Part shown: in pieces, positions 8,579 to 49,826 of the stretch
How positions within the stretch are numbered: the first letter of the stretch is position 1
Layout: each line of letters begins with the position of its first letter
IMG/VR virus record: IMGVR_UViG_3300031454_000230
Span: 1 to 51,013 of that record
Strand: one strand, 5' to 3'
Length of the DNA stretch: 51,013 nucleotides
DNA from: a virus
Taxonomy: Duplodnaviria; Caudoviricetes
Notes under the pieces: model-generated
Seen by the model: only the letters and a program-made list of their open reading frames with translations
The model's database searches: none
What the model was told of the DNA's origin: nothing
Translations under genes and position numbers: made by a program

Positions 8579-9256
8579 CTATTTCGTCGCGTACTGGCGC
8601 TTGATCTCTTTCTCGCCTACGGGTCGCCTGACTGCCTTCGATGGCACGACGACGTAGACCGACGCGACCTCGGCAAGCTCCTCATCCGGCATCGTGGGCG
8701 CGTTGAAGCTTTCGAGGTTGTAGAGGCCGGGCTCGCTCCCACGAAGAACGCGCTTGATGTAGCGGCGGTTGTCTTTGGTCACGACGAGCGCGACGTCCCC
8801 AAGCACCTGGTCGATCGGCCCGGCCGGCTGGACCAAGACGATATCGCCCGGGTCATACTTCGGAAGCATCGAATTGCCCCACACCTCGAAGGCGCGGATG
8901 CCGGACGGAATCGGGATGTCGAGTTCGATCTGAGCGACGTCGCCTCCATAGGCGAGCTGCACCTCGGGGTTTATGTCCCCGCCGGCTCCAACAAGCCCAT
9001 CGATCAGGATCACGGTCGAGCGGTGGGCATCCGATACATCGCCTTCAGCGAACACCAGTTCTTCCGGACGCTTCCCAAGGTGGGGAGCGATCTTCTGAGA
9101 CCAGTCGATTGGGAGTTTCCTTTCGGCATCCGCCCAGCGCTGAACGTTCTGCTTCGAAGTATCCACGAGGCGAGCGAGTTCGCTCGGACCGACGCCGGCT
9201 TGCTCCATCGCGCTCCTGAGACTGTTCGGATACTTGCCTTTCATGCTCATCAGCAT
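8579..9256 (-). CDS. cI: CI-like repressor (XRE HTH plus S24 peptidase)
   Basis: HTH SELARLVDTSKQNVQRW; VGAG cleavage site; GNSM Ser and YIKRV Lys; start may instead be 9250 or 9244. Confidence 0.95.
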   Translation of the reverse strand: MLMSMKGKYPNSLRSAMEQAGVGPSELARLVDTSKQNVQRWADAERKLPIDWSQKIAPHLGKRPEELVFAEGDVSDAHRSTVILIDGLVGAGGDINPEVQLAYGGDVAQIELDIPIPSGIRAFEVWGNSMLPKYDPGDIVLVQPAGPIDQVLGDVALVVTKDNRRYIKRVLRGSEPGLYNLESFNAPTMPDEELAEVASVYVVVPSKAVRRPVGEKEIKRQYATK

Positions 9257-9334
9257 GTCACCGCTCTGGTGACAAAGGGAGCATCCAAGGTGGTGACGAA
9301 TGGACTTGCGCCGTCACCAAATCGGTGACATCTT
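9257..9334 (+). promoter_or_regulatory. oR operators and pR-like promoter
   Basis: GTCACC-N5-GGTGAC at 9257-9273 and 9313-9329, degenerate GCATCC-N5-GGTGAC at 9281-9297; TTGCGC(9306)-17 bp-CATCTT. Confidence 0.85.
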
Positions 9335-9342
9335 CCGCGCCC

Positions 9343-9591
9343 ATGACGATCACCGAGTTCCTCGCCCAAAGCGAAACGTCCGACGCTGCTCTGGCAGAAG
9401 CGATCGGGGTCTCGCGCCAGTCGCTGCACCGCTACAAGACTGGCGAGCGACGTCCGGAATGGGACGTGCTTGAGCGTCTTGCCAAGGTGACCAACGGTAA
9501 CGTCACCCCGAACGACTTCATCGACGTCCCCCGGCCCGCTCCGGCCGAGACCGAGCCGCAGCCCGGCCCCGCCCAAGGCGTGGCAGCCTGA
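9343..9591 (+). CDS. cro: Cro-like repressor
   Basis: Short HTH LAEAIGVSRQSLHRYKTGERRP and VTPNDF tail; divergent from cI. Confidence 0.92.
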   Translation: MTITEFLAQSETSDAALAEAIGVSRQSLHRYKTGERRPEWDVLERLAKVTNGNVTPNDFIDVPRPAPAETEPQPGPAQGVAA

Positions 9592-14413: not shown

Positions 14414-14886
14414 CCGCCGCTCGCGAGGGATGGACGCCCAAGCGCGTCGCCGATGTGGAGCTGCTTTGGCGCGGCGGACTGTCCGCCGGACAGATCGCGA
14501 TTGCCCTCGGCGGAGGCGTCACCCGCAACGCGGTGATAGGCAAGATCCACCGGCTTGGCCTAAAGCGACGAGCTGACACCCGGCCCGCGGCGCCGGTCGC
14601 ACGGCGACCCGCGAAGGTCACCCCGGCCCGGACGCCCGAGCCGGTCCATGCGCCGCCCGCCGAGATACCCGCGCCGCCACCTGCCGAACACCGCACGGGC
14701 CCCGTCTCGCTCCTGGAGCTTCGCGACGGCGAGTGCCGCTACCCGATCGGCGACCCGGGGACGCCGAGCTTCGGCTTCTGCGGAAGTCGCGTGCACGAGG
14801 CTGGCGCGTCCTACTGCGCCAAGCACCACCGGCTCTGTGTGTCGGACGTCGTGAACGTTCGCCGACTCGCGAGGGCGGTCAGGTGA
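14410..14886 (+). CDS. gcrA: GcrA-family cell-cycle regulator
   Basis: WTPKRV..LWRGGLSAGQIA..GVTRNAVIGKIHRLGL and LLELRDGECRYPIGDP..FGFCG..YCAKH. Confidence 0.93.
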   Translation: MTAAREGWTPKRVADVELLWRGGLSAGQIAIALGGGVTRNAVIGKIHRLGLKRRADTRPAAPVARRPAKVTPARTPEPVHAPPAEIPAPPPAEHRTGPVSLLELRDGECRYPIGDPGTPSFGFCGSRVHEAGASYCAKHHRLCVSDVVNVRRLARAVR

Positions 14887-15599
14887 GCGCGGCCCTCGTC
14901 CCGTCCGGCTCCTACGCCGTCATGGCGCAACGGCGCGAACCGCCGGACTCGCTCGACTTTTTTCCGACCCCTCCGTGGGCCACGCGGGCGCTCAGCCGGT
15001 GCGTGCTCCAGCCGCAAGGGGTTAAAACGCGCCTTCTCCAGGTTTGGGAGCCGGCCTGCGGCGAAGGCCACATGTCCACTGCTCTCGGGGATGACTTCGC
15101 GACCGTCGTCGCGACGGACGTCTTCGACTACAGTGGCGGCAATCCAACGCGATGGCCTGCCGGCTGGTGGCGCACACTCGATTTCATCGACCCGACCGAG
15201 CCGCAGACGCCAACCGTCGACTGGATCATCACCAACCCACCGTTCAAGGTCGCCGAGGCCTTCGCGCTCCGAGCGCTCGCCCTAACCCATCATGGAGTCG
15301 CGCTCCTCGTCCGATCCACTTGGCTGGAGGGCGTCGGAAGACACGAGCGTCTGTTCCGGCCGCACCCGCCCGCCGTCATCGCGCAGTTTGCCGAGCGCGT
15401 GCCGATGAGGAAGGGCCAGTGGAACCCTGAAGGCTCGACCGCCACGAGCTACGCTTGGGTGGTCTGGCGCAAGGGCTTCACGGGCACGCTGTTCACCTGG
15501 ATCCAGCCCGGGCAGCGGATCGCGCTGACGATGCCGGAGGACACCGCGCGCTTCGGTGTGCGGACCGGCGCGCCGTTGCTGGACGGAGCGGGCCCATGA
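14883..15599 (+). CDS. SAM-dependent DNA methyltransferase (probably N6-adenine)
   Basis: DFFPTPPWAT, WEPACGEGH (motif I), IITNPPF (motif IV). Confidence 0.9.
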   Translation: MSAALVPSGSYAVMAQRREPPDSLDFFPTPPWATRALSRCVLQPQGVKTRLLQVWEPACGEGHMSTALGDDFATVVATDVFDYSGGNPTRWPAGWWRTLDFIDPTEPQTPTVDWIITNPPFKVAEAFALRALALTHHGVALLVRSTWLEGVGRHERLFRPHPPAVIAQFAERVPMRKGQWNPEGSTATSYAWVVWRKGFTGTLFTWIQPGQRIALTMPEDTARFGVRTGAPLLDGAGP

Positions 15600-19496: not shown

Positions 19497-20414
19497 ATGA
19501 CGGAGGCCGATTTCGCCTCCGCCGAACGCTACGCCGAGGCCGCCGTGGCGGCCGCCACGCGGGCCGCCTACGGAAGCGCGCTCCGGGCCTTCGCGGCATG
19601 GGGCGTCGAACGCGCGCTTGCCACGCTGCCGGCCGATCCCGAGACGGTCGCCGACTACCTTGCCGGCTTGGCCGACCGAGGCTGCAAAGCGGCCACGATC
19701 GATCTCCACGCGGCCGCTATCGCGTCGGCTCACCGGGCCGCCGGGCTCGCGCCGCCGACCGGCGCCGAGTCGGTCCGGGCGACGGTGCGCGGCATCCGCC
19801 GCTCGATCGGCACCCGGGCAACCCGGAAAGCCCCGGCCACGGCCGAGGCGCTCCGAAAGATGATCCGGCGCATCCCGGACACGCTGACGGGCAAGCGCGA
19901 CCGGGCGCTGCTTCTCATCGGCTTCGCGGCCGCGCTGCGCCGCTCCGAACTCGTCGCTCTCACAGTCGCCGACATCGAACGCGCTCCGGAGGGCATCTTC
20001 GTCCACCTCCGACGCTCCAAAACGGACCAGGATGGCGCCGGCCACGCCGTTCCAGTCCCGCGCGGCTCCAAGCTCCGGCCCGTCGAGGCGCTCGAGCACT
20101 GGCTCCAGGCTTCCGGGATTTCCGAAGGCCCGCTCTTTCGGCCCATCGGGAAGGGCGGGCGCATCGGGGCCGAACCGCTGACCGGCCGTTCGGTCGCCGC
20201 CATCGTGAAGGTGCGGGCCGCAGCGGCCGGCCTCGATGCGACGCTCTTCTCCGGCCACTCGCTGCGGGCTGGCTTCGTCACGTCCGCGCTCGCGACGGGG
20301 GCCGACCTCCTCAAGATCATGGCAACGACGAGGCATACGCAAGTCGACACCCTGAAGGGGTACGACCGCCGGGCTCAGAGCTTCGTCGCCCATGCCGGCA
20401 AGGGCTTCCTGTGA
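19497..20414 (+). CDS. Cre-like tyrosine recombinase/resolvase
   Basis: RDRALLLIGFAAALRRSEL, RSKTDQ, FSGHSLRAGFVT, TRH..YDR. Confidence 0.93.
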   Translation: MTEADFASAERYAEAAVAAATRAAYGSALRAFAAWGVERALATLPADPETVADYLAGLADRGCKAATIDLHAAAIASAHRAAGLAPPTGAESVRATVRGIRRSIGTRATRKAPATAEALRKMIRRIPDTLTGKRDRALLLIGFAAALRRSELVALTVADIERAPEGIFVHLRRSKTDQDGAGHAVPVPRGSKLRPVEALEHWLQASGISEGPLFRPIGKGGRIGAEPLTGRSVAAIVKVRAAAAGLDATLFSGHSLRAGFVTSALATGADLLKIMATTRHTQVDTLKGYDRRAQSFVAHAGKGFL

Positions 20415-20986: not shown

Positions 20987-21553
20987 GTGGTGAACGGTGA
21001 ACGCCTCACCCTGAGCGAACTGGCTCGGCGGCTCGGCCGAGCCAAATCCGGGCTGCATAAGCTGGCCGCGGCGGGCCAGATCCCGAAAGGTCTCGATGGC
21101 CTCTATGACGTGGCCGAGGTCGAGGCAGCGCTCGCCGCGAACATCGACCCGGCCAAGCGTCCGAAGCTCAGGCTGGCCCCGACCCCGCCGCCGGAGCCGC
21201 CACCTCCGATCCACTCCCCCGACGAGGCCCGCGACGCCGTCACCCTGATCGCCGGCGTGCTGCGCGAGGAGGGGCATGGCGCCGTCGAGGTCGTCGACTT
21301 CAACGCCGCCCGCACAGCCGAAACCATCCTGAAGGCCCGCCTGCGCCTCATCCAGGTCGAGGAAGCAGCGGGCCGTCTTATCCCAGCCGCCGCCGCCGAA
21401 CGGGCCTGGGCCGGCGCCATGGTGCAGATGCGGGCGCGCCTCCTCGCCGTCCCGACCGACGTCGCGCAGCTCCTGCCGCACCTGACGAAGCACGACCTCG
21501 CCATGATCGACCGCGCGTTGCGGGATGCCATGACGGACGCGAGCTCCGGGTGA
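20987..21553 (+). CDS. Terminase small subunit (Nu1-like)
   Basis: N-terminal wHTH LSELARRLG..YDVAEV; coiled coil then GRLIP..RARLLAVP; precedes GpA. Confidence 0.88.
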   Translation: MVNGERLTLSELARRLGRAKSGLHKLAAAGQIPKGLDGLYDVAEVEAALAANIDPAKRPKLRLAPTPPPEPPPPIHSPDEARDAVTLIAGVLREEGHGAVEVVDFNAARTAETILKARLRLIQVEEAAGRLIPAAAAERAWAGAMVQMRARLLAVPTDVAQLLPHLTKHDLAMIDRALRDAMTDASSG

Positions 21554-23406
21554 GCGTCGCCCTCGCGCAAGCCGTCTCCGCCGCCAGAGCTCGCCTCCGG
21601 CCGCCGCCGCGAACCGCGCTGTCAACCTGGATCGAGGAGAACGTTCACCTCCCGGACGGCCTTGCGGCGCGTCCGGGTCCGGTCCGCCTCTGGCCGTTTC
21701 AGCGCGGGATCGCAGACGCGATCTCGGATCCGATGATCGAGCGCGTGACCGTCCTGAAGAGCGTCCGCGTCGGCTACACGATGCTGCTCACGGGCACGAT
21801 CGCGTCCTTCGTCGCGAACGAGCCCGCCCCGATCCTGGTCGTACAGCCGACGGACGACGATTGCCGCGACTATGTCGTGTCCGACATGGAGCCGGTGTTC
21901 GAGGCGTCCCCGGCCGTCGCCGGCGCCCTCTCGGCCGACGTCGACGAGACCGGCCGCAACACCATCCGGCATCGCCGCTTCCCCGGCGGGTCGCTCAAGA
22001 TCGTGGCGGCCCGCTCGCCCCGGAACCTGCGCCGCCACACCGCCCGCATCCTTCTCATCGACGAGGAAGACGCGATCGAGGTGACGCAGGAAGGCGACGC
22101 GATCGACCTCGCGATCAAGCGCACCCTGTCGTTCCCGAACCGCAAGATCGTCCGCGGGTCGACTCCGACCGACCTCGACACCTCGACGATCTGCCGGGAA
22201 TACGACGCCTCCGACCGGCGCGTCTTCGAGATCCGCTGCGTCGAATGCGACGCGGCTCACGAGCCGCTCTGGGACCAGATCCGCTGGGACCCGGGCCGGC
22301 CCGACACTGCCTCATGGCTCTGCCCGAGCTGCGGGACCTTCGTGCCGGAGCGCCACAAGGTCGCCATGGTGGCGGCCGGCGCCTGGCGGGCGACGCGACC
22401 CGAGATCGCGGACCATTCCGGCTTCCGGCTCTCCGCTCTCATCTCACCGCACGCGAACGCATCCTGGTCCAAGCTCGCGGCGGAATACCTTCAGGTCCAC
22501 GACGACCCGGAGCGGCTGCGGACCTTCCACAACACCCTCCTCGGCCGCGGGTGGGCCGAGAGTGTCGAAGTTGCGAGCCCCGAGGTTCTCTATGAGCGGC
22601 GCGAGCCGTTCGGCCTCAATGTCCAGAACGAGGACGGGACCGAGCTACCTTTTCCGGCAAGCGTGCTCCTCCTGTCGGCGGGGGTCGACGTCCAGGACGA
22701 CCGGCTCGAATGCGCCTTCCTCGGACACGAGGAGTTCGGACCGCCGGCGGTTCTCGGCCATGCCATCGTGCATGGCCGGTCTGATGACCCTGCGACGTGG
22801 CGCGAGCTCGACGAGATCCTGCTCACGCGCTGGCGCCACCCGCTCGGCGGCACGATCGGCATCTCGGCGGCCGCGATCGACGCGGGTGACGGCGGCTCCG
22901 CCGAAGACGTCTACGAATTCGCCTGGGCGCGCTCCTCCCGCGGCATCATGGCCGTCAAGGGCATGGCCGGCTTCCGGCCTGCGATCGAGCCGTCCAAGGG
23001 CAAGGTGTCCAAGGGCACCCTATCCGGTAAGGGCCGGCTCTGGATCGTCGGGTCCGACACCGTCAAGGCAGCGCTCCTCACCCGCCTCGCCAAAGCGACG
23101 ACGGGTTCCGGGGCCGACGCGAACGCGATCCGGTTCTCGGCCTCGCTGCCCCGCGTGTGGTTCGAGCAGCTCTGCGCCGAGCGGAGGGTTGTGCGCCGGA
23201 TCGGCGGGCGCCCGCAGCGGCGCTTCGAGCGCATCGGTCACCAAGCCGCGGAAGCGCTCGACTGCGTCGTCTACGCGCTCGCGGCCCGGGCCTCGCTGCC
23301 GGTCGTCAACTTCGAGGCGCGTCGAGCGGCGGTGTCGGGCGAACCGGCCGTCAAGACGCGGCCGTCCTTCGCGGACCTCGGGGCCCGCCTCAACCGGAAA
23401 GAGTGA
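21550..23406 (+). CDS. Terminase large subunit, lambda GpA family
   Basis: KSVRVGYT, LLIDEED, GSTP, Cys pairs, GVDVQDDRLE, EALDCVVYA. Confidence 0.96.
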   Translation: MSVALAQAVSAARARLRPPPRTALSTWIEENVHLPDGLAARPGPVRLWPFQRGIADAISDPMIERVTVLKSVRVGYTMLLTGTIASFVANEPAPILVVQPTDDDCRDYVVSDMEPVFEASPAVAGALSADVDETGRNTIRHRRFPGGSLKIVAARSPRNLRRHTARILLIDEEDAIEVTQEGDAIDLAIKRTLSFPNRKIVRGSTPTDLDTSTICREYDASDRRVFEIRCVECDAAHEPLWDQIRWDPGRPDTASWLCPSCGTFVPERHKVAMVAAGAWRATRPEIADHSGFRLSALISPHANASWSKLAAEYLQVHDDPERLRTFHNTLLGRGWAESVEVASPEVLYERREPFGLNVQNEDGTELPFPASVLLLSAGVDVQDDRLECAFLGHEEFGPPAVLGHAIVHGRSDDPATWRELDEILLTRWRHPLGGTIGISAAAIDAGDGGSAEDVYEFAWARSSRGIMAVKGMAGFRPAIEPSKGKVSKGTLSGKGRLWIVGSDTVKAALLTRLAKATTGSGADANAIRFSASLPRVWFEQLCAERRVVRRIGGRPQRRFERIGHQAAEALDCVVYALAARASLPVVNFEARRAAVSGEPAVKTRPSFADLGARLNRKE

Positions 23407-29678: not shown

Positions 29679-29930
29679 ATGCGCCTGACCCTGGTCAAGC
29701 TCGCCGACCCCGACCACCGGCTCCCCATGCCGGATCGCGGCGGCCGCCCTTTCTCGGCCGATGGCGAGTCGGTCGACCTCGACGCGCCGTTCTGGCTCGC
29801 CTGCCTCGCCGACGGCTCGATCGTCGAGGCCAAGACCGACGCGGCCAAGGCCGACGCGGGCGAGGCTCGGCCCGATGCGGGCCTGGCCGTCACTGCTATC
29901 CCGACCACCCCGAACGCGCGAGGCAAGTGA
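29679..29930 (+). CDS. DUF2635-like small tail protein
   Basis: DGESVDLDAPFWLACLADGSIV; precedes a Mu-type sheath. Confidence 0.75.
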   Translation: MRLTLVKLADPDHRLPMPDRGGRPFSADGESVDLDAPFWLACLADGSIVEAKTDAAKADAGEARPDAGLAVTAIPTTPNARGK

Positions 29931-29932
29931 TC

Positions 29933-31438
29933 ATGGCCGGCATTGGCTTCAACTCCATCCCGGGTCAGGGCCTGACGGCTCCGATCTTCGCCTTCGAGGT
30001 CAACTCGGGCGGCCAGTACGACAGCGCGAGCCGCCTCGTGCTCCTCGGCCACAAGACGACGGCCGGCTCGCTCGCCGACAACACGCCCTCCGTCGTGGCC
30101 TCCCAGCAGGAAGCCGACGCCCTCGCGGGCCCGGGCTCCATGCTGCGCGAGATGTACCGGATCGCGCGCGCCAACGCGCCCGTCCAGGAGATCTACGTCG
30201 TGCCCGTCCCGGCGACCGGCGTCGCCCAGGTGTCCTCGGTCACGATCGCGAGCCTGCCCGCCGCGGGCGGGGTCGGCGTGTTCCGGGTCTGCGGCGAGGA
30301 GATCGCCATCACGATCGGGGCCGGCGACAGCGCCACCACGATCGCCGCCGCGGTGGCTGCCGCTATCAGCGGCTACTACAACACCCTCACGGCTGCCATG
30401 CTGCCCGTGACGGCGACGTCGTCCGCAGGCGTCGTGACGATCGCGGCCCGGCATGCGGGGGCGCTCGGCGCCGAGATCGCGATCGAGGTCCCGGCCCGCA
30501 TCGGCAACGTGTTCGCGGCCGCGAACGTGTGGACGCTCGCGACGGTGACGCCCGGCTCCGGCATCCCGTCTCTCGCGGCCGCGCTCGCGGCGCTCGCCGA
30601 CAACCCGGCCGACCTCGTGGTTGGGCCCTGGGCCGACGCGACCTCGCTCGACGCCTACGGCACGACCATGTCCGACGGGGTCGGGCGCTGGGGGTACAGC
30701 CGCCAGAGCTACGGCCACGTCATCGCCTGCAACACAGGCAACACCTCCGCCCAGACCACGCTCGGGCTCGCCCGCAACGACCGCCACGTCACGATCCTGC
30801 CCCGCCCCGCCGGTGCGTCGCATCCGTCCTGGCTGTGGGCGGCCGGCTTCGCGGGACGCGTCATCCCCTGGCTGTCCGATTGCGTGCTCGGCAACGTGTC
30901 TCGCAACCAGACCGGCCTCGTCGTCGAGGGCCTTTCGCCCCCGGCTGACCCGAGCGCTGTCTGGGGCTACGGCGCCCGCAACGTCTTCCTCAATTCCGGG
31001 ATCTCGACCTGGAACGTGACGGCGGACGGCAAGGTCGCGGTCGACAAGCTCGTCACCACCTACCGGCTCGGCGTTCTGGGGCAGCCCGACGCGGTGTTCC
31101 GCGACATCCAGGCCCTGTTCCAGGTGGCTGGTGGGCTGAAGTTCATCCGCAGCGTCATGGCGGACGAGCACGGCCAGAAAGCGATCGCGGACACAAATCC
31201 CGGCAACCTCGCGGCCATCTCGACGCCGTCGGACGTCAAGGCGACCGCGATCCACGCCTACGCGAACCTCTGCGCTCGCGGCGTCTTCGAGGATGAGCCC
31301 GGCTTCACCCGCCGCGTGATCGCTCGCCGGAACGTCCAGAACCCGGCCCGCATCGACCTCCTGATGCCGATGGACCGGGTCAACCCGCTCGACATCCTCG
31401 CGGCCAACGCGACGATCTACGCCCAGTATCCGGTCTGA
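29933..31438 (+). CDS. Contractile tail sheath protein (Mu-like)
   Basis: FNSIP..PIFAFEV, GPGSML, GRW..QSYGH, NSGIST, VTTY, NPARIDL. Confidence 0.95.
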   Translation: MAGIGFNSIPGQGLTAPIFAFEVNSGGQYDSASRLVLLGHKTTAGSLADNTPSVVASQQEADALAGPGSMLREMYRIARANAPVQEIYVVPVPATGVAQVSSVTIASLPAAGGVGVFRVCGEEIAITIGAGDSATTIAAAVAAAISGYYNTLTAAMLPVTATSSAGVVTIAARHAGALGAEIAIEVPARIGNVFAAANVWTLATVTPGSGIPSLAAALAALADNPADLVVGPWADATSLDAYGTTMSDGVGRWGYSRQSYGHVIACNTGNTSAQTTLGLARNDRHVTILPRPAGASHPSWLWAAGFAGRVIPWLSDCVLGNVSRNQTGLVVEGLSPPADPSAVWGYGARNVFLNSGISTWNVTADGKVAVDKLVTTYRLGVLGQPDAVFRDIQALFQVAGGLKFIRSVMADEHGQKAIADTNPGNLAAISTPSDVKATAIHAYANLCARGVFEDEPGFTRRVIARRNVQNPARIDLLMPMDRVNPLDILAANATIYAQYPV

Positions 31439-42095: not shown

Positions 42096-43547
42096 ATGTT
42101 GTTGCGCTTCCTGCTCGCCGCGATCCTGGCGCTTGCTCCTGTCGCCGCGTTAGCGGAGCAGCGGCCCGTCAACATTGGCGCTCCCAACTCGGGCACTGGC
42201 GATCCGCTACGGGCCGCCTTTGCGAAGCTGAATGCCAACGATGTCGAGCTGTATGCCTCGGTCAGCACGCTCCTGACGGCGCTCGCTGGCAAGGCCCCGC
42301 TCGCCAGTCCGGCATTGACCGGAACGCCGACCGTGCCGACGCCGTCGGCCGGCGACAACTCGACCCGGATCGCCAACGCGGCTTACGTCAATACGGCGTT
42401 CGCCACCCGGCAACCGCTCGATTTGACCCTCACGAGGCTGAGCACGCTCGGCGTGGCGTCTCTCCTCGATTCCGGCGCCGTGTTCGGCGGGCACAGCGTC
42501 GCGGCCGTTCTGTCGCGCGCTGAGACCCAGGCGCACCCCTTCGATGCCCGCGGCATCCTGGCGATCAGGAAAGAGGCGTTCGGCTCCGGCGTCGACGGGG
42601 GCGGCAGCGTTGCCGTCGCGGACTTCAACACGCTTTTCGAGATCAAGAAAACGAACTGGCTGACGAGCGATCAGCCCGGCGAGGTCGACACGCTGTCGCT
42701 CATCACCCGGCAGGGGCGCCGGGGCGACGCGGGCTCAATCCTCTTCAACGGTCAAAAGGTGAAGGGCACCGCGACCGATACTGGGGGCCTTACTGGGCTT
42801 GAGGGAGAGCTTCGCTGGGTCAACGCTGCCGGCGCGGCCACGATGGGTATCCACGTCACGACGGGCCACCTTGAGGGCGTGGGCGGTATTTCGGGCGGAA
42901 CCGCGGTTGGGTTTACCGCCGAAGCCACGAAGGGCACCCCGTTCGCCGCGTTCCATGCCGGCGCGTTCAATCCGGACGGGGATACGCTTCACCCCAAGTG
43001 GCAGTACGGCTACTTTCAATCCGACACGCGCGATCCGCTGACGGTCAGCTCGTCCATCGATAACCTCGGGCTCGGCTATTTCAAGGGCGGGTTGCGTGTC
43101 GGGACGGGCGCGACAATCGCCACGCTCGGCAATGCGGCAGAAAAGAATACAGGAACTGCAGCTGGAACAGTCGCCGCGGGCGACGATAGTCGATTTTCTC
43201 CAGGCTCGTGGACACAGACCACGCCGGTGCCTTTAGCCGCTGTCGGCACAATAACGTCAGCATCCTCCGTCGTGCGCTATCGGACCTTCGGTAAGACCGT
43301 GTATTTCACCGTCAAGGTAACGATCCCAACAGCTGGCACGGGCAGCAACCAGCTCCTCGTGAATATGCCCTACGCTGCCGTCGAATATTCAGCTTTCGCC
43401 GGTCGCGAGAACGCAGTCAGCGGTAAGATGCTTCAAGGGTTTATCGCTCCTGGTTCCGCAACGTTGAACATTCTCACCTACGACAATCTGACCACGATCA
43501 CGAATGGAGCGGTGGTGATCTGCTCTGGTGTCTACGAAGCGACCTAA
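42096..43547 (+). CDS. Fibre-like protein with signal peptide and gp9/gp10-type GTGD motif
   Basis: MLLRFLLAAILALAPVAALA then VNIGAPNSGTGDPLRAAFAKLNAN; KAPLASPALTGTPTVPT and GTAAGTVAAGDDSRF fibre motifs. Confidence 0.8.
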   Translation: MLLRFLLAAILALAPVAALAEQRPVNIGAPNSGTGDPLRAAFAKLNANDVELYASVSTLLTALAGKAPLASPALTGTPTVPTPSAGDNSTRIANAAYVNTAFATRQPLDLTLTRLSTLGVASLLDSGAVFGGHSVAAVLSRAETQAHPFDARGILAIRKEAFGSGVDGGGSVAVADFNTLFEIKKTNWLTSDQPGEVDTLSLITRQGRRGDAGSILFNGQKVKGTATDTGGLTGLEGELRWVNAAGAATMGIHVTTGHLEGVGGISGGTAVGFTAEATKGTPFAAFHAGAFNPDGDTLHPKWQYGYFQSDTRDPLTVSSSIDNLGLGYFKGGLRVGTGATIATLGNAAEKNTGTAAGTVAAGDDSRFSPGSWTQTTPVPLAAVGTITSASSVVRYRTFGKTVYFTVKVTIPTAGTGSNQLLVNMPYAAVEYSAFAGRENAVSGKMLQGFIAPGSATLNILTYDNLTTITNGAVVICSGVYEAT

Positions 43548-43576
43548 CACCCACTCGGGTTGATCTTCTGCCCCGC

Positions 43577-43597
43577 GCCCTCTTCGGAGGGCTTTTT
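43577..43597 (+). terminator. Rho-independent terminator
   Basis: GCCCTC-TTCG-GAGGGC-TTTTT. Confidence 0.85.
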
Positions 43598-43616
43598 CAT
43601 ATCCGGAGAAGTCAAG

Positions 43617-44186
43617 ATGACGGTCCGCTTCCCGCTCACTCGCGACGCATGGGTCGACCTCGGGGCTGCGCCCCTGTCAGTCGTTCTGGCCAGTGTGTCG
43701 CGAGCCTTCGTCGTCCCGGGTACCGCACCGCCACCCGTGGCGTCAGAAGAAGCCCAAATCCTCTTTCAAGACGGGAACAAAAAGGACATTTTCGGCGTCC
43801 CAGGCCAGCGCGTCTATGCTCGGGCCGTGGATACAACAGCGGCGGTTTGGGCCCTGCCGGTCGCCGCAGCCGTCTCGTCGGGCGGCAAGGTCAGTTACAC
43901 GCTCCTGTCCGCGGCAAGCACGACAGGGGCGGCCTCCACGAACATCGCGGGCGGCAACTACGTCTGGCGCGTCGAGGGCACCTTCGGCGGAGCAACCGCG
44001 ACATTGCAGGTGCTCGGCCTCGACGGCACGACCTGGACGAACGCCAAGGACGCGGACGGCACGACCGATATCACAGCGACGGCGGCGCGCTCAAAGGCGG
44101 TCACGGTCGCCCAGGGCACCGCCGTCCGCGTCGCCATCGCGGGCGGCTCCGGTGTCTCGCTCAACTCCACTCTGGGGGGCTACTAA
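43617..44186 (+). CDS. Two-domain beta-rich virion accessory protein
   Basis: GGAG SD; GTFGGATATLQ..DGTTW motif; beta-strand-rich. Confidence 0.7.
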   Translation: MTVRFPLTRDAWVDLGAAPLSVVLASVSRAFVVPGTAPPPVASEEAQILFQDGNKKDIFGVPGQRVYARAVDTTAAVWALPVAAAVSSGGKVSYTLLSAASTTGAASTNIAGGNYVWRVEGTFGGATATLQVLGLDGTTWTNAKDADGTTDITATAARSKAVTVAQGTAVRVAIAGGSGVSLNSTLGGY

Positions 44187-44189
44187 GCC

Positions 44190-46376
44190 ATGGGCGTCAT
44201 TGGCCTCCCGGTCGCCTTGCCGCTGCTCTATGGGCAGAAAGGACCAGTCGCACCGGCCGTACTCATCCCTTCCGCCCTGACGATCTCCGGCACGCCCGGG
44301 GCTGCCACGGCAGGTGCAGCTTACAGCTTTATCCCGTCGACCTCGGGCGGCTCCGGCACGAAAACCTTCACCATTGCTGGCTCACTCCCGGCTGGGATGT
44401 CATTCTCGCCTGCCACAGGTGCTGTCTCCGGCACCCCGACTATTGTTGGCACTACAACCGGACTGAACATCACGGTTACAGACGCAACCGCATCTGCATC
44501 GCTGGGCGTATTCTCGCTTACTGTAGGCGCAAGCGCGCAGGTTCCAGCCGCCCCGGCGCTCGCCCTGACATCTGGCAACGGCCAACTTACAATCGCATGG
44601 ACGGATGGCAGCAACGGCGGGGCGGCAATCACGTCTCACAAGCTCTATCGCGGCGCGACTTCCGGGGCCGAGACACTTCTCGGCAATGTTGCAACCGCAT
44701 CGCCTTACGTTGATACCGGCCTGACGAACGGGGTGGCCTACTTCTACAAATTGTCGGCTGTAAACTCAATCGGGGAAAGCGCACTTAGTATCGAGCAGTC
44801 CCGTACGCCGTTCGCGCCCTTGGTTTTATCTGGCACGCCGGGATCGGCTGCGCAGAACTCGCCCTATACGTTTACTCCGACCGTTGCCGGTGGTTACGGA
44901 GCCAAGAGCTATACTCTGGCAGGAAGTCTGCCAACTGGCCTATCCTTTTCCACCACAACGGGCGCGATCAGCGGAACTCCGACGGTTGCCGGGACAACTG
45001 CGGGCCTGAACATTACCGTTACGGACGCGAGCGGGTCGGCATCGCTGGGAGCTTTCTCTCTCGTCGTGAGCGCAGCACCTCCAGCCTCGCCTGCCCTAAC
45101 ATGGGTGTCGGACAGCTCCGCCCTCAATCCGACGATGAACGTCGTCCTCGCGCCTAATCCGGCGGTCGGCGACGTAGTGGCGGTGCAGGTTTCTACCGCT
45201 TCCGATTTCTCGACGATTTTCGGGACTGGGACGGCCACGCTCACGAGCACGAATGTCACGAACGGAACGTGCAGCCCGACCGGTTTCCCGACGCTCTCCT
45301 ACGGCAATACCTATTACGCTCGCGCCAAGCTCACGCGCGGCGGGGTTGCCAGCGCATGGTCGGCCTCGGTCTCAAAGGTCATGGATGCGGTCGATAGTGC
45401 TCCCGGTCCGTTCGGTTTCACCGACGTCACCGGCGCGACGCTCTCCACCCTCTACACGTCCAATACGATCACGCCGACGGCGTTCAATAGCCCCACCACG
45501 GCTTCCGTCACAGGCGGCACGATCTCGATCAACGGCAGCGCTTTCGGCGCGGGCGAAACGTTCTTCAACCCAGGGGACACGATTGCGGCGCGGGCCACTT
45601 CTTCCGGTGCCAACTCCACCCCCGTCAACGTCGTCGTCACCATCGGCGGGGTGAGCGATACCTACACGGTCACGACGGCGGCTGCGGCTGGAGGTGGTGC
45701 TCTTGCCTACACCCAAACGGCCAGCCCTGCCCTGCGACCCCTCGGGAATTCGGGCGGCCTCGCCATCACGTTCGCCGCTCAGAATATCGGCGCTGCTTCG
45801 GCCGACCGAATTGTCAACGTCGAGCTCATCGGTTTCGCCAACGCCAGCACGGTCGTCACCGGAATCACGGTCGGGGGGATCTCGCTCGCGAAGAAGGTCG
45901 GAATTGATCCCTCCGCCAATGCAGGAGCCATTTGTGAGGAGTGGGCGCGCCTGCTTACCGCGACAGATATTCCCGGCTCATCAGCAGACATCGTCATCAC
46001 TGCGACCGACACGGCAGGCTCTAATCCCTGGCAGCAGATCGGGATCAGTGTCGGCACGATCAAAGGGTCTGCCACAGCCTCGGTGTCCGGAACCGCGACC
46101 AAGAACCGATCCTACACGTCCGGCACGGCCACCGCGTCTGCGGCTCTCGTCGTCCCGACCGGGGGGCTTATCAAAGCAGCGGCCTTTGAGCAGGGCACGA
46201 CTGCGACCGGCATTACCGGATGGGGCACCGGCATGACGGCCGATTATACGCCGGCTCTGTCGGGGACTTTCATCGGATCGTTCGGACACTCGACCGGTAC
46301 AGGCTCGATCACTCCGGCCGTGACTTTCAACCAGGATGGCAATAACGGCCTCGCCGCCGCAGTATGGAGCCCATGA
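44190..46376 (+). CDS. Large Ig-like (He_PIG x2) plus fibronectin-III adhesin-like protein
   Basis: Two GSLP.G.SF...TGA.SGTPT..G....ITVTD repeats flanking an FN3 unit (WTDGSNGGAAITSHKLYRG..GLTNGVAYFYKLSAVN). Confidence 0.88.
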   Translation: MGVIGLPVALPLLYGQKGPVAPAVLIPSALTISGTPGAATAGAAYSFIPSTSGGSGTKTFTIAGSLPAGMSFSPATGAVSGTPTIVGTTTGLNITVTDATASASLGVFSLTVGASAQVPAAPALALTSGNGQLTIAWTDGSNGGAAITSHKLYRGATSGAETLLGNVATASPYVDTGLTNGVAYFYKLSAVNSIGESALSIEQSRTPFAPLVLSGTPGSAAQNSPYTFTPTVAGGYGAKSYTLAGSLPTGLSFSTTTGAISGTPTVAGTTAGLNITVTDASGSASLGAFSLVVSAAPPASPALTWVSDSSALNPTMNVVLAPNPAVGDVVAVQVSTASDFSTIFGTGTATLTSTNVTNGTCSPTGFPTLSYGNTYYARAKLTRGGVASAWSASVSKVMDAVDSAPGPFGFTDVTGATLSTLYTSNTITPTAFNSPTTASVTGGTISINGSAFGAGETFFNPGDTIAARATSSGANSTPVNVVVTIGGVSDTYTVTTAAAAGGGALAYTQTASPALRPLGNSGGLAITFAAQNIGAASADRIVNVELIGFANASTVVTGITVGGISLAKKVGIDPSANAGAICEEWARLLTATDIPGSSADIVITATDTAGSNPWQQIGISVGTIKGSATASVSGTATKNRSYTSGTATASAALVVPTGGLIKAAAFEQGTTATGITGWGTGMTADYTPALSGTFIGSFGHSTGTGSITPAVTFNQDGNNGLAAAVWSP

Positions 46377-47680
46377 CGATGAGCCTAAATCTCACCCTAT
46401 CGTCGCCGGCAATCGTCACGAGCTACCCATATCAGTTTCCCTATACCAACCCGCACACCTTGATTGTGCCTTCGTCCGTCACCCTTCCGACTACAGCCGG
46501 CGCGAGATACATCGATCCCGAATTTGGGATGCCTGTGATGCTTGCGGCTAATCCCAGTGAGGGCACGCTCGATCAGATGCACGGGTTTGTTTATGGCAAC
46601 GTGAGACCCTTCAACGCGGACAATACTCTGATCCTTATTAACAATGCCGCAGAGCCGCACGGCGTCGCGTTCCGAGCCTTTAATCCGAGCGGTCCGGGTA
46701 CTCTCGGGACGAAATACAGCCTTCCTGCTGTGACGTCCGCGAACAGCATGAATGGTCCGCAGATGCTCTGGCATCCGACCAACCCCTTGATCGCTTTCTG
46801 TGCCGCACCTTACGGGATCGGGCCTAAGGTTCGTAAGATGGATTTTACCGACCCGTCAAACATCGTGATCTCCGACTACGCCGATTTCACCGGCGTCGGT
46901 AGTTTCACAAGCGGCATGTACATTCAGCAGATGTTCCTCGCCGCAGATGGCAACACGATCTCTGGAACTGTCCAGCTGACGTCAGATAATACCTCACCAG
47001 CTTATTTCGTAGCCACGATGTCGCCCAAGGCCGTGCTCTGTTACCACAATGACCAGTACCAGATCAACGAAGGGATCATCAGCCGCGACGGAACTCATGT
47101 CTATGTCCATCGTCTCGCCGCCACAGGGGCAGCAAATCAGGCGTTCAGCCATAACGTGGCCGCTCACAGCCAGATTGAGCTGGGGAATAACTCAGGGTTT
47201 GAGCTCGCCCACTACGACACGTTCGGCACAAAAGGCATAGTTGGCTGGGACGGCTATTTTGGGCAGCTCAAGAAGCTGAACATGAATGACCCGACGAACC
47301 CGACAGTCATCGTGGATTACCGATATGGTCTAGGTTCCGCATTCCAGGGTGTTGGCGGACACATTGAATTGTCAACTGTTCACGCCTCCATGTCGACCTC
47401 CGACGAAACGAAAGTCATGCTCGAATACTATCAGACGAATGAGAAAACCAGCGTGCCAATGTCCAATGAAATTACGGCATGGGCAATGGATGGCAGCCAA
47501 GGAGTAGAGCGGTACTTGAACCACCGCTTCAACGTTGCATCGGGTGACTACAGCGACCTCGCTTACTACGCACAGCCTCATGCGTCGTTTAGCCGAGACC
47601 GACGTTGGCTCGCGTTCGGCGGAAACCTTGGCGTCCTTGGTGGCAAGAACCTGCCGTGGATTGCGGGGCCGTTCTTTTAA
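46373..47680 (+). CDS. Beta-rich (propeller-like) protein
   Basis: YIDPEFG, PFNADNT, WHPTNP, QPHASFSRDRRWLAF resemble TolB/oligogalacturonate-lyase-like propeller blades; lower GC. Confidence 0.65.
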   Translation: MTMSLNLTLSSPAIVTSYPYQFPYTNPHTLIVPSSVTLPTTAGARYIDPEFGMPVMLAANPSEGTLDQMHGFVYGNVRPFNADNTLILINNAAEPHGVAFRAFNPSGPGTLGTKYSLPAVTSANSMNGPQMLWHPTNPLIAFCAAPYGIGPKVRKMDFTDPSNIVISDYADFTGVGSFTSGMYIQQMFLAADGNTISGTVQLTSDNTSPAYFVATMSPKAVLCYHNDQYQINEGIISRDGTHVYVHRLAATGAANQAFSHNVAAHSQIELGNNSGFELAHYDTFGTKGIVGWDGYFGQLKKLNMNDPTNPTVIVDYRYGLGSAFQGVGGHIELSTVHASMSTSDETKVMLEYYQTNEKTSVPMSNEITAWAMDGSQGVERYLNHRFNVASGDYSDLAYYAQPHASFSRDRRWLAFGGNLGVLGGKNLPWIAGPFF

Positions 47681-47764
47681 ATGGATTGGCTCCTCATCTG
47701 GTTCGCTGCCAGCCCGTTCGCGCTCGCCTTTGTACTCGGCTGTTTCGCTATTCAGCGGGACTGA
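47681..47764 (+). CDS. 27-aa hydrophobic peptide
   Basis: MDWLLIWFAASPFALAFVLGCFAIQRD, starting immediately after the upstream stop. Confidence 0.4.
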   Translation: MDWLLIWFAASPFALAFVLGCFAIQRD

Positions 47765-48003
47765 CTGCGCCGTCCAGGTCCTTCGGGACAGTGGGCGGAG
47801 AGGGCCGCGGTTAAGTTCTTAAGGGCGACCTGCCTCTCTGCTACAAGCCTCATAAGGTCAGCGTAGACACCGGGCCGCGGAACATCGTCACCTGCGACCC
47901 ATCGCCGAACCGTGCGGTCCGATACGTCGAGCGCGCGGGCTATCTCAGACTGCCAACGATCTCCGTAGAGAGCTCGGCCGGTTTCGGCGAGGATCTGGCT
48001 CAC
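47752..48003 (-). CDS. Small HTH regulator (Aca-like position)
   Basis: GRALYGDRWQSEIARALDVSDRTVRRWVAG; GTGA-coupled last gene of the operon. Confidence 0.85.
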   Translation of the reverse strand: MSQILAETGRALYGDRWQSEIARALDVSDRTVRRWVAGDDVPRPGVYADLMRLVAERQVALKNLTAALSAHCPEGPGRRSQSR

Positions 48004-48377
48004 AGGTCGTGATCTCGCATCCATCCGATGCATCGCCGGCCTGTCCAATGCGCTGCGTCGTCGACCACCACCAGGCGGCCCTCGCGCCTCGAATTGACCA
48101 CGGACCCACGTGGCAACGCCGCCACCGCGCTCCACATCAAACGATCCGGATGGACCGCGATCATTATGTGATTGAGATGGAGAGCGACCTGTGCAGGCAA
48201 CATGGAGCTCGGGATACCCTCTACCGTAAATCGTGTTGGGTTACTGCTATCAGGTGAGACCTCGACATAATGACTCGATCCGTAGGGCCCGCACCCCAAT
48301 TGGAGCGTGTATTCGGTTGGGGATGCAAACCAGCCGTCGCCAGCAGTTTGAATATCGGCATAAGTGATGGTGGTCAT
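48000..48377 (-). CDS. Hypothetical protein
   Basis: GAGGAGG SD; 125 aa; lower GC. Confidence 0.8.
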   Translation of the reverse strand: MTTITYADIQTAGDGWFASPTEYTLQLGCGPYGSSHYVEVSPDSSNPTRFTVEGIPSSMLPAQVALHLNHIMIAVHPDRLMWSAVAALPRGSVVNSRREGRLVVVDDAAHWTGRRCIGWMRDHDL

Positions 48378-48389
48378 GGCAGGTCCTCC

Positions 48390-48725
48390 TCAGCGCTTGG
48401 ACAGAGAGACGAGGAGCTTGTTGAGGCCGCCGGCCAGTCCGTGTGTCGTCAGGTTGTCGCAGCCCTCATAAGCCTCGATCAAGTCTTTGGCGCTCGCCTT
48501 GGCGAGGACAGGTGCAGCGCGAGCGGTTAGGGCGTCGTTAACCTGGTCTAGCGAGCGGCCCTGAAGGATGTACAACTCGATAGCACCGGCCAACATCTTG
48601 CGGCGAGCATCGTCCGCATAAGCAACCTGACGATCGGAGCCCACAAGAGCCGGAGCGTCCGTGACAGACAAGAGAATTTGATGGCGGGTGGGCTTGGCTG
48701 CCGTGGAGGTGGCGGTGATGATCAT
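48390..48725 (-). CDS. Hypothetical protein
   Basis: AGGAG SD; LVGSDRQVAYADDAR motif. Confidence 0.8.
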   Translation of the reverse strand: MIITATSTAAKPTRHQILLSVTDAPALVGSDRQVAYADDARRKMLAGAIELYILQGRSLDQVNDALTARAAPVLAKASAKDLIEAYEGCDNLTTHGLAGGLNKLLVSLSKR

Positions 48726-48775
48726 GGCGGGTCTCCTACCCTGTCCCGGCGGGGCCGATCCCCATCCGATGAGAG

Positions 48776-48805
48776 AGTATATGTCCGGAAATTAGGACAT
48801 GTCAA
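48776..48805 (-). promoter_or_regulatory. Near-consensus sigma70 promoter with palindromic operator
   Basis: TTGACA-18 bp-TATACT on the minus strand; ATGTCC-N8-GGACAT (48781-48800) fills the spacer. Confidence 0.85.
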
Positions 48806-48971: not shown

Positions 48972-49826
48972 ATGCTGACCTTCACCGGCCGGGCGCAGAA
49001 GCTCGTCGACACGGACCTGCCGCGCATCGGCGCGAAGATCGGCGTCGGCGAGGATGAGTTGCACGCCTTCCTGGAGGTCGAGACGATCGGGGGCGGGTTC
49101 GACGGCCACGGCCGGCCGAAGATGCTCTTCGAGCCGCACATCTTCTATCGCCACCTCTCCGGTGCGAAGCTGGACCGGGCCATCGCGGCCAGCCTCGCCT
49201 ATCCGAATTGGAAGCCGGGCAACTATCCGAAGGACAGCTACCCGCGCCTACAGGCCGCGATCGCCATCGACGAGGCGGCGGCGCTCAAATCCGCGTCGTG
49301 GGGCATCGGCCAGGTCTTGGGCGAGAACCACGTCGCGGCTGGGTACAACGTGGTCCAGGCGATGGTCGCGGGCTTCGTCGAGCTCGGCGAGGCGGAGCAG
49401 CTGGAGGCGGCCGTCCGGTTCATCTCCTACAACCATCTCGACGACGAGCTGCGGTCTCATAATTGGGCCGGGTTCGCGAGGGGCTACAACGGCGCGCAAT
49501 ACGCGAAGCACGGCTACCACCTGAAGCTCGCCGCTGCCTTTGCGAAGTGGCGGCGGATCCGGGACACGCCGTGGCCGGGGCCGGCGCTCGCGACCACGCT
49601 CGGCGAAGCTCTCCGCTCACCCGGCGTGACACCTGACCAGCCCGCACCGGTTGCGCCCCGACCTCCGCAACCAAACCCGACCCCAGCCCCGATCCGTCAA
49701 CCGGAGCCGGTCGCTGTCCCGCCGAATCCCGCGCCGCCGGCTCACAGCTCCGTCGGTGTGATCGAGCCGGAGCCCAAGGTCAGCCGATGGGCGGGTGTCG
49801 CTCGGATACTCGGGCTCACCCGGTAG
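48972..49826 (+). CDS. Endolysin, N-acetylmuramidase (DUF3380-type)
   Basis: EVET..GF..GRPKMLFEPHIF, SASWGIGQVLGEN, WAGFARGYNG; Pro-rich C-terminus. Confidence 0.93.
   Translation: MLTFTGRAQKLVDTDLPRIGAKIGVGEDELHAFLEVETIGGGFDGHGRPKMLFEPHIFYRHLSGAKLDRAIAASLAYPNWKPGNYPKDSYPRLQAAIAIDEAAALKSASWGIGQVLGENHVAAGYNVVQAMVAGFVELGEAEQLEAAVRFISYNHLDDELRSHNWAGFARGYNGAQYAKHGYHLKLAAAFAKWRRIRDTPWPGPALATTLGEALRSPGVTPDQPAPVAPRPPQPNPTPAPIRQPEPVAVPPNPAPPAHSSVGVIEPEPKVSRWAGVARILGLTR

Follow-up and report, generated by a model that had tools for sequence, protein, structure and literature searches.

An acr-aca-like accessory operon in a temperate phage, with an operator palindrome, a leader RNA and a coupled helix-turn-helix gene that recur across a family of loci

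What is a small operon doing on the opposite strand among the late genes of a temperate phage, and what might its genes encode? The question is raised by virus record IMGVR_UViG_3300031454_000230, a provirus of 51,013 bases with a completeness rating of 96%, the whole of which I will call the window. Between positions 47,752 and 48,805 the minus strand carries a promoter overlapped by a palindrome, two small genes (open reading frames ORF1 and ORF2) and, coupled to the second of these, a gene for a protein with a helix-turn-helix (HTH) motif. An initial annotation, made from the sequence alone, likened this arrangement to operons in which anti-CRISPR genes (acr) are followed by the gene of an anti-CRISPR-associated repressor (aca), and proposed that the two small genes encode inhibitors of host defence. 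The promoter, the palindrome, the two small genes and the coupled HTH gene that it described are all present, and a structured leader may be added to them:

48800 to 48805, minus strand: -35 hexamer TTGACA, from a promoter scan; its last base doubles as the first of the palindrome
48781 to 48800, no strand assigned: operator palindrome (putative) ATGTCCTAATTTCCGGACAT, two mismatches to the family consensus ATGTCCTA-N4-TAGGACAT
48776 to 48781, minus strand: -10 hexamer TATACT, from the promoter scan
48729 to 48768, minus strand: two-hairpin 5' leader motif, covariance model R1, 58.9 bits, E = 6e-8
48768 to 48747, minus strand: predicted hairpin P1, with a lower stem of 3-4 bp, a bulged A, an upper stem of 5 bp and a loop of 5 nt
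48741 to 48729, minus strand: predicted hairpin P2, GGGT-AGGAG-ACCC, with the Shine-Dalgarno sequence in its loop
48390 to 48725, minus strand: ORF1 (P0001), 111 amino acids, Shine-Dalgarno sequence AGGAG
48000 to 48377, minus strand: ORF2 (P0002), 125 amino acids, Shine-Dalgarno sequence GAGGAGG
47752 to 48003, minus strand: HTH regulator gene (P0003), 83 amino acids, GTG start overlapping the ORF2 stop (GTGA)

The answer argued here is that the operon is an autoregulated accessory cassette of the acr-aca type, whose cargo, ORF1 and ORF2 included, most likely serves to inhibit the defence systems of the host, a reading to which I would assign a probability of about 0.55. That the regulatory frame (promoter, operator, leader, exchangeable cargo and coupled HTH gene) is a feature of a whole family of loci is highly probable. 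The case for anti-defence cargo draws on the architecture, on the size and turnover of the cargo, on genome position and on two annotated cargo genes found in relatives.

The promoter, TTGACA and TATACT with an 18-nt spacer (48805 to 48776, minus strand), agrees at 11 of 12 positions, in a 5-kb region that has three promoter-like sites against 0.9 expected. Taken as ATGTCC-N8-GGACAT, the palindrome fills the space between the two hexamers, and its single exact copy in the window is the one at 48781 to 48800. With up to two mismatches allowed, there are three sites in the window against 1.33 expected, so the window by itself says little about the significance of the palindrome. It may be considered non-random because it recurs upstream of homologous HTH genes at other loci.

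These loci were collected through the HTH protein. A word-indexed protein search gave 46 candidates, of which 36, with lengths of 70-86 amino acids, are relatives at E <= 1e-3, and in their alignment (A1) W17, Q18, R23 and the stretch R30-T-V-R-R-W35 are invariant. Locus searches with A1 found relatives encoded in 125 viral and 88 genomic stretches; the best 80 of the 125 viral stretches were used, and the 88 genomic stretches yielded 77 loci. The set considered below consists of 152 loci (window included) matched by the A1 profile in plus-strand frames at E <= 1e-12, nine weaker loci having been dropped and duplicates kept unless stated. The named genomes are mainly those of Alphaproteobacteria (Phenylobacterium, Acetobacteraceae, Methylosinus, Magnetospirillum, Rhodoblastus, Hyphomicrobium, Bradyrhizobium and Sphingomonas), with Burkholderiales and a few others as well, and the domain was also found by tblastn in 24 phage records, from phages of Xanthomonas, Mannheimia, Acidovorax and Edwardsiella.

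When the 6-bp inverted repeats in front of the HTH genes were tallied without bias, the three top pairs of arm and spacer all proved to be parts of one and the same palindrome, ATGTCCTA-N4-TAGGACAT. This 20-bp sequence is present no more than 2.5 kb upstream of the HTH gene in 93 of the 152 loci when up to 4 mismatches in 16 positions are allowed, and in 76 of them with up to three; elsewhere in the loci it has only 13 matches, 8 of them with 4 mismatches. The usual layout in the relatives places TTGACA at -17 to -12 from the palindrome (at least 4 of 6 positions in 46 of 69 unique promoters, perfect in 16) and a -10 hexamer, TAWWTT, at the centre of the palindrome itself. In that layout and in the one seen in the window, a protein bound at the palindrome would block RNA polymerase. 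An inverted-repeat operator lying over the promoter of the operon is one of the marks of acr-aca operons.

The palindrome and the regulator also vary together. The operator variant GTCGTA/TACGAC goes with four unique HTH proteins, all of which carry V and Q in their recognition helix (VRTVQRW), and with the operator GTCCTA the corresponding residues are D in 61 of 63 unique proteins and R in all 63 (DRTVRRW). This matched variation is the best evidence that the HTH protein reads the palindrome, and, together with the co-occurrence of the two, it is what bears on the putative binding of the repeat and repression through it. The two pairings, GTCC with D/R and GTCG with V/Q, amount to a simple, testable specificity code.

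The position of the HTH gene at the end of the operon is similarly general. A same-strand ORF ends at the HTH start in 104 of the 152 loci; in 14 the HTH is fused to an N-terminal domain, in 32 there is no such upstream neighbour and in 2 the contig ends. Among the 76 loci with a good palindrome, the start of the HTH gene overlaps the preceding gene by 4 nt in 39 and by 1 nt in 5. A small HTH gene standing last in the operon, overlapping ORF2 through GTGA in the window, is what an acr-aca operon has.

Between the palindrome and the first start codon stands the leader, with transcription probably starting near 48769, to judge from the position of the -10 hexamer, and its two hairpins are kept in most loci. 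Across the family, the lower stem of P1 measures 3-5 bp and its upper stem 4-5 bp, with a bulged A between the two and 4-7 nt in the loop, and P2 has a stem of 3-5 bp with the Shine-Dalgarno sequence (AGGAG) as its loop, the start codon following 2-8 nt further on. By a strict parse, P1 is present in 38 of 68 unique leaders, as compared to 163 of 3400 mononucleotide shuffles, and P2 accompanies it in 35 of those 38. The sequences of the stems vary across loci with the pairing kept: the lower stem of P1 may be GCGC/GCGC, CGG/CCG, GAG/CTC or CGAG/CTCG, and examples of the P2 stem are GGGC/GCCC, GGGT/ACCC and TGGC/GCCA.

A covariance model (R1), seeded with 20 leader sequences in the same register, matched 58 places in 1.06 Mb at E <= 0.1, every one of them on the strand of the HTH gene, the match at 48768 to 48729 being the sole one in the window. 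In the 56 matches aligned to R1, which include the 20 seed sequences, 90.4% of cells are paired, against 77.3% in shuffles, a count made on an alignment fitted to the R1 structure and thereby favouring it. Changes on both sides are found in 8 of the 12 pairs, and the covariation score is 0.29 (against 0.087), a score reached by none of 500 shuffles, with slid controls at 0.048 or less. Thus the predicted RNA described by R1 provides what acr-aca operons have at the 5' end of their mRNA, a structured and covarying hairpin.

Other approaches to the leader gave nothing. Folded as a single sequence, the leader of the window does no better than shuffles (z = -0.07), and Rfam holds no family for it at E <= 10 beyond matches at chance level. 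RNAalifold predicted zero pairs from a raw MAFFT alignment of 67 leaders because two sequence classes stand one column out of register in it, and it is for this reason that the covariance model was built from 20 in-register sequences.

The two classes of P1 may be written CGG-A-TGGGG..CCCCG-CCG and GCGC-A-GGGC..GCCC-GCGC, and they appear to track groups of hosts, the first being found in named Alphaproteobacteria and the second in named Burkholderiales (L091 and L119, and by eye L096, L097 and L099). In this they resemble the host-specific RNA clusters reported for Aca1. In some operons of several genes the leader motif is repeated between successive cargo genes: three times in L076 (2004-2044, 2400-2438 and 2773-2812 of that locus) and four times in L073 (of which 1989-2027, 2647-2686 and 3001-3040 are the coordinates listed). 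A second palindrome is present in L010, L073, L076 and L047. The repeated motifs and second palindromes suggest that one regulator controls several genes or operons.

What lies between leader and regulator is far less constant. If the acr-aca analogy is sound, homologues of the HTH gene should be preceded by many different small genes, and they are. A collection of 118 upstream proteins fell into 87 clusters, and with refined gene calls, taking as cargo the genes from the leader to the HTH gene in the 76 loci with a good palindrome, there are 94 cargo proteins (86 unique) from 71 loci, in 76 BLASTP clusters. The cassettes carry one cargo gene in 47 loci, two in 21, three in 2, four in 2 and none in 4. 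The proteins are small, with a median of 81 amino acids and with 81 of the 86 unique ones no longer than 150. Turnover is seen even beside near-identical regulators: in 68 pairs of loci the HTH proteins are at least 75% identical, and in 54 of these the two loci have no cargo cluster in common.

Few cargo proteins resemble anything annotated. PHROGs, applied to 84 unique ones, gave no match for 75, matches to families of 'unknown function' for 7 and annotated families for 2. The first of these two comes from a Bradyrhizobium chromosome (L128, with an identical copy on a plasmid of the same strain, L130), and matches phrog_7245 'anti-restriction protein' at 3e-82, as well as ArdcN at 4.7e-35 and MPTase-PolyVal at 4e-46. 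The second, from L006, matches phrog_8786 'type I-E anti-CRISPR protein' at 1.4e-4 and the AcrIE3 chains 8zey and 8hel at 1.2e-3 (residues 2-53 on 2-53; 72 versus 68 amino acids), a likeness not seen by tblastn against phage records. In the window, ORF1 and ORF2 match no known Acr, and the family offers one weakly AcrIE3-like and one ArdC-like cargo protein. Among 117 upstream and 41 further cargo proteins, Pfam found no toxin family; its matches are to the HTH part of fused forms, one KORA-like HTH, ArdC and two sub-threshold cases, while two other neighbours with Pfam matches, a hydantoinase and a portal-like protein, are not cargo.

From these elements the following course of events may be proposed. 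A strong sigma-70 promoter, overlapped by the 20-bp palindromic operator, would give rise to an mRNA bearing in order the two-hairpin leader, the exchangeable ORF1 and ORF2, and the gene of the HTH repressor, the last translated through coupling to ORF2. As the repressor would be absent when the operon is first transcribed, the cargo would be made immediately. The HTH protein, once it had accumulated, would bind the palindrome, presumably as a dimer, and shut the promoter, and, if Aca1 and Aca2 are a guide, it may act on hairpin P1 of the mRNA as well. In the prophage state, only low-level expression would be anticipated.

How does this regulator stand with respect to the known Aca proteins? 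P0003 matches phrog_12690 at 2.3e-17 and phrog_3626 at 1.7e-11, both of 'unknown function', and in Pfam only generic HTH families at sub-threshold scores. In a profile search of PDB the top match is the HigA-2 antitoxin (E = 9.4e-4, HTH positions 22-66), followed by the AcrIF25 entry 8x24 (E = 1.2e-3, positions 6-72 on residues 3-76) and a partial match to Aca2 (E = 1.6e-3); the AcrIF25 alignment is the only one to span the whole HTH domain. The Aca1 chain is absent from the PDB matches of the HTH profile at E <= 10, and direct comparison by hhalign gave 34% probability over 26 columns for Aca1 and 77% for Aca9 of a Klebsiella plasmid, over just 30 columns of the HTH core. Full-length homology to Aca1, Aca2 or Aca9 was therefore not found. 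By eye, the WQS..RTVRRW signature is absent from the sequences of Aca4, Aca5, Aca7 and part of Aca8 printed in the AcaFinder supplement, and the string RTVRRW occurs nowhere in that supplement (PMC9765179). I found no publication on this HTH family or its operator, and the supplements of PMC13551039 might list more. The initial annotation's likening of the HTH protein to Aca regulators holds for the layout of the operon; the protein itself falls outside Aca1, Aca2 and Aca9, and for this reason 'Aca' denotes a putative new family here. Comparison of sequences, by eye in the case of Aca4, Aca5, Aca7 and part of Aca8, points to a new, apparently undescribed Aca-like family.

A bolder version of the proposal can be put forward tentatively, and I would sooner doubt than believe it as a whole: that the HTH protein is the founder of an undescribed Aca family which, like Aca2, binds both the DNA palindrome ATGTCCTA-N4-TAGGACAT and the bulged-A hairpin of its own mRNA, and that at least 76 cargo clusters, with ORF1 and ORF2 among them, are inhibitors of Alpha- and Betaproteobacterial defence.

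ORF1 and ORF2 themselves have little to say about their functions. Neither matches anything in Pfam, PHROGs, PADLOC or NCBIfam, and neither has a relative in the 160 other loci (excluding L004, a copy of the window). For ORF1, a word-indexed search of 5.8 billion clusters, the sole sequence search made for its relatives, found none, and the ESM Atlas had no informative neighbour. It is predicted to be helical by an AlphaFold2 model made with no alignment (per-residue confidence, pLDDT, 75.8), and an Atlas model has a predicted template-modelling score (pTM) of 0.86, but the AlphaFold2 model had no Foldseek match in PDB or BFVD at E <= 0.001; AcrIF23, at rank 3 in the Foldseek results (E = 0.76, TM 0.23), is not a meaningful hit. 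For ORF2, the word-indexed search of clusters returned ORF2 alone, and a full HMMER search of 1.84 billion representatives gave 12 matches, with E from 7.6e-25 to 1.3e-4 and identities of 30-52%. One of them (P0045, 857 amino acids and repetitive) looks spurious and was omitted from the alignment (A3); in the others P56, P77, W82 and an HWTG motif are conserved. Distant matches with conserved residues argue that ORF2 belongs to a real small family. Its AlphaFold2 model is unusable (pLDDT 33), the ESM Atlas gave nothing, and relatives were found neither in the viral scan nor in 5 genomes nor in 401 genomes. Two metagenome loci suggested as holding relatives of ORF2 proved on a profile check not to do so. 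By guilt by association, the two remain plausible candidates for anti-defence proteins.

The surroundings of the operon are those of an ordinary temperate myovirus-like phage, as mapped by scanning 46 ORFs with PHROGs:

1 to 1152, minus strand: integrase
8579 to 9256, minus strand: cI-like repressor
9325 to 9591, plus strand: Cro-like gene
14733 to 15599, plus strand: DNA methyltransferase (phrog_799, 1.2e-53)
19497 to 20414, plus strand: second tyrosine recombinase (phrog_1, 3.2e-25)
20987 to 23406: terminase
29927 to 31438: sheath, then tube, tape measure and baseplate
42096 to 47680, plus strand: tail-fibre-like genes
48972 to 49826, plus strand: endolysin (Pfam Muramidase, 1.7e-46)

Replication genes precede the terminase, and portal, protease and head genes come after it. 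The operon sits on the minus strand between the last fibre-like gene and the endolysin, opposite to both, so that its placement between tail and lysis modules and against the late genes is as the initial annotation had it. The lower GC content claimed for the two small genes is likewise borne out: the operon has 57-63% as compared to 67.8% for the window, and GC at third codon positions (GC3) is 0.71 and 0.63 in the small ORFs, against 0.8-0.9 in structural genes. A blastn search of 50,697 phage records found no match to the DNA of the operon. Among sequencing runs listed as containing the sequence there was none of RNA and one of DNA, which may be the source sample.

The last gene at the tail-fibre position (46364-47680, plus strand, 438 amino acids) has no Pfam or PHROG match and is low in GC like the cassette, with GC3 0.66 and a regional GC of 52-58%. 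It and the cassette together make a low-GC patch from about 46.2 to 48.7 kb, which may have arrived as one block. The methyltransferase may be a second counter-restriction function of the phage, and the second tyrosine recombinase, additional to the integrase at 1-1152, is internal, between the replication genes and the small terminase.

In the family at large, the 126 nearest flanking ORFs of 67 dereplicated loci include an integrase in 7 loci, a DNA methyltransferase in 7, an endolysin or spanin in 4, a terminase in 3, primase or replication genes in 3, tail genes in 2 and a PAPS reductase in one. Sites of this kind are the variable accessory regions of prophages. Anti-defence loci have been reported to lie beside orphan methyltransferases and PAPS reductases (PMC7648647; PMC13551039).

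Such positions bring to mind the best surviving of the alternatives, itself unlikely, that the same frame carries a moron, a cassette for lysogenic conversion or exclusion, with cargo in the service of the lysogen (superinfection exclusion, defence encoded by the prophage, or a change in host physiology). The operon has its own sigma-70 promoter, runs against the late genes and occupies the classic moron spot between fibre and lysis genes; relatives lie at prophage ends beside integrases in 7 of 67 loci; an autorepressed promoter would give steady low expression in the lysogen; and the 75 of 84 cargo proteins without any PHROG match might do anything of the kind. The sole two annotated cargo families, however, ArdC-like and AcrIE3-like, are ones of counter-defence, and the median cargo length of 81 amino acids is below that of most defence systems. 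PADLOC, run on ORF1, ORF2 and the HTH protein, gave only two weak matches, both to the HTH protein (mad1, E = 5.2e-4; RmrA, E = 0.018), and the layout of the leader hairpin agrees with that of acr-aca operons as described in PMC13551039.

An internal module of the phage, in which the cargo would be antirepressors or timing factors and the HTH protein a secondary immunity repressor, as in immI of P22, is a good deal less probable. The HTH is Cro/YdaS-like, an operator within a promoter is a design generic to phage switches, and ORF1 is small and predicted to be helical, all of which would suit such a module. However, the phage already has a cI/Cro pair (8579-9591), cargo turnover beside near-identical regulators is unexpected if the cargo consists of regulators fitting their own phage, and the cassette is found in unrelated phage types and at many positions in their genomes.

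Least probable of all is a type II toxin-antitoxin locus of reverse order, with ORF2 or ORF1 as toxin and the HTH protein as antitoxin and autorepressor: loci of the higBA type do place the toxin ahead of a coupled HTH gene, under a palindromic operator, which the order, coupling and palindrome of this operon resemble, the top PDB match of the HTH profile is HigA-2, and there are weak sub-threshold matches to PF15943 (YdaS; 17.4 bits against a cut-off of 30), but those matches are located on the HTH part of fused proteins, the fixed toxin partner that should then accompany the HTH homologues was not recognised among their upstream and cargo proteins, and a single, nearly invariant HTH of 72-83 amino acids with no extra domain faces 76 unrelated partner clusters, one to four genes per cassette and none in 4 loci, with unrelated cargo in 54 of the 68 pairs of near-identical HTH proteins.

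To return to the acr-aca reading, the initial proposal is upheld in its architecture, in the conserved operator and leader and in the diversity of the cargo; it finds no echo in ORF1 and ORF2, which resemble no known inhibitor. Several points weigh against it. The two proteins are unlike any known anti-defence protein or annotated family. Elsewhere, only 2 of 84 unique cargo proteins belong to an annotated anti-defence family; the link of one to AcrIE3 is weak and lacks tblastn support, and the ArdC case is one sequence on the chromosome and plasmid of one strain. The best PDB match of the regulator is an antitoxin, HigA-2, level with AcrIF25 and Aca2, all three being marginal. The promoter layout of the window, with the -35 hexamer abutting the palindrome and the -10 following it, is rarer than the family norm. 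The four HTH proteins with the variant operator may form one clade, so that their match to it possibly reflects a single evolutionary event, and the favour shown to R1 by the pair count belongs on the same side.

A number of relatives depart from the simple form of the regulator. Long HTH forms with a C-terminal extension of about 115-150 amino acids occur in L125, L131, L135, L114, L118, L119 and L126 (3486-4133 in L125, 3486-4022 in L131 and L135); the extension has no PDB or Pfam match, and in three of the long forms the palindrome stands immediately before the HTH gene, cargo being absent. The long forms may be fusions of regulator and effector, in the order seen in AcrIF25. In Xanthomonas phage vB_XORNC02 and Mannheimia phage 535AP2, the HTH forms the C-terminal third of proteins of 170-185 amino acids (phrog_12690), encoded in the former by tandem paralogues (L002, 3171-3728 and 3715-4245) and in the latter at L003, 3198-3716; the consensus palindrome was not found upstream of these fused proteins in either locus. 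The notion that ORF2 and the HTH gene are a split form of the fused proteins was discarded, ORF2 having no similarity to their N-terminal domains. Acidovorax phage Aval encodes an 87-amino-acid member (L001, 3501-3764; 38256-38519 of the record) that is unannotated in the deposited record, overlaps the stop of gp45 by 4 nt and has the palindrome, with one mismatch, 414 nt upstream.

Most of the known anti-CRISPR and other anti-defence proteins owe their discovery to guilt by association with a few Aca regulators, mostly those of Gammaproteobacteria and Firmicutes. The new family offers a ready handle for such searches because it comes with a defined operator, a model of the leader RNA and about 150 loci, and these, in Alpha- and Betaproteobacterial prophages, would supply dozens of small proteins to test. 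If the acr-aca reading is right, the cassette would be a further, independent operon of that type with a covarying hairpin in its 5' untranslated region, and the hairpin would bear on how general translational control is among counter-defence genes.

It remains to set the cassette beside the systems it most resembles. HigB-HigA, with HigA-2 of Vibrio cholerae as example, also opens with a small gene, closes with a coupled HTH gene and regulates itself at a palindrome, traits which the cassette would share; in contrast, the cassette has no toxin family upstream, no toxin-binding extension of the HTH protein, and 76 unrelated clusters of partners.

Aca9 and Aca5 of Enterobacterales are alike in that a small HTH gene lies downstream of variable acr genes, in phages and plasmids (PMC7648647). 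The best Pfam family of Aca5 is PF15943 (YdaS), according to Table S2 of AcaFinder (PMC9765179), and some members of the HTH family described here match it too; however, by eye, the sequence of Aca5 printed there lacks the WQS and RTVRRW signatures. The likeness to Aca9 is restricted to the HTH core, as given above.

Among solved chains, only the AcrIF25 entry (8x24) aligns, through its N-terminal domain, with almost all of the HTH domain, the N-terminal G-x-A-L-[FY]-G motif of the family included. Homologues of AcrIF25 are reported to carry a ribbon-helix-helix (RHH) or HTH module, the latter in one homologue, which inhibition does not require and which is believed to have a regulatory role (PMC13551039). 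The match is marginal and lacks the WQS..RTVRRW signature. AcrIF25 has the domain and the inhibitor in a single protein; the cassette has a separate HTH gene, though fused forms are found in the 14 loci already mentioned.

Close parallels in organisation are acr-aca1 (Pseudomonas phage JBD30, L164) and acr-aca2 (Pectobacterium phage ZF40). The cassette differs from both in that its HTH protein is homologous to theirs in the helix-turn-helix core at most, in having a second hairpin, which presents the Shine-Dalgarno sequence, in its mainly Alpha- and Betaproteobacterial hosts, and in that the operon in the window is without a validated Acr; nor is its operator sequence like the repeats of JBD30. 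As described in PMC13551039, the operators of acr-aca1, -2, -10 and -12 overlap the promoter, with transcription starting 10-15 nt downstream, and their mRNAs begin with a hairpin to which Aca1 and Aca2 bind. In this hairpin a covarying upper stem is separated from a lower stem by unpaired bases, and its end lies about 20 nt ahead of the start codon. Like these operons, then, the cassette combines a strong promoter and an inverted-repeat operator with one to several small, shuffled upstream genes, a small terminal gene, often overlapping, for an HTH protein that would be its autorepressor, and an mRNA whose 5' end forms a covarying hairpin with a bulge.

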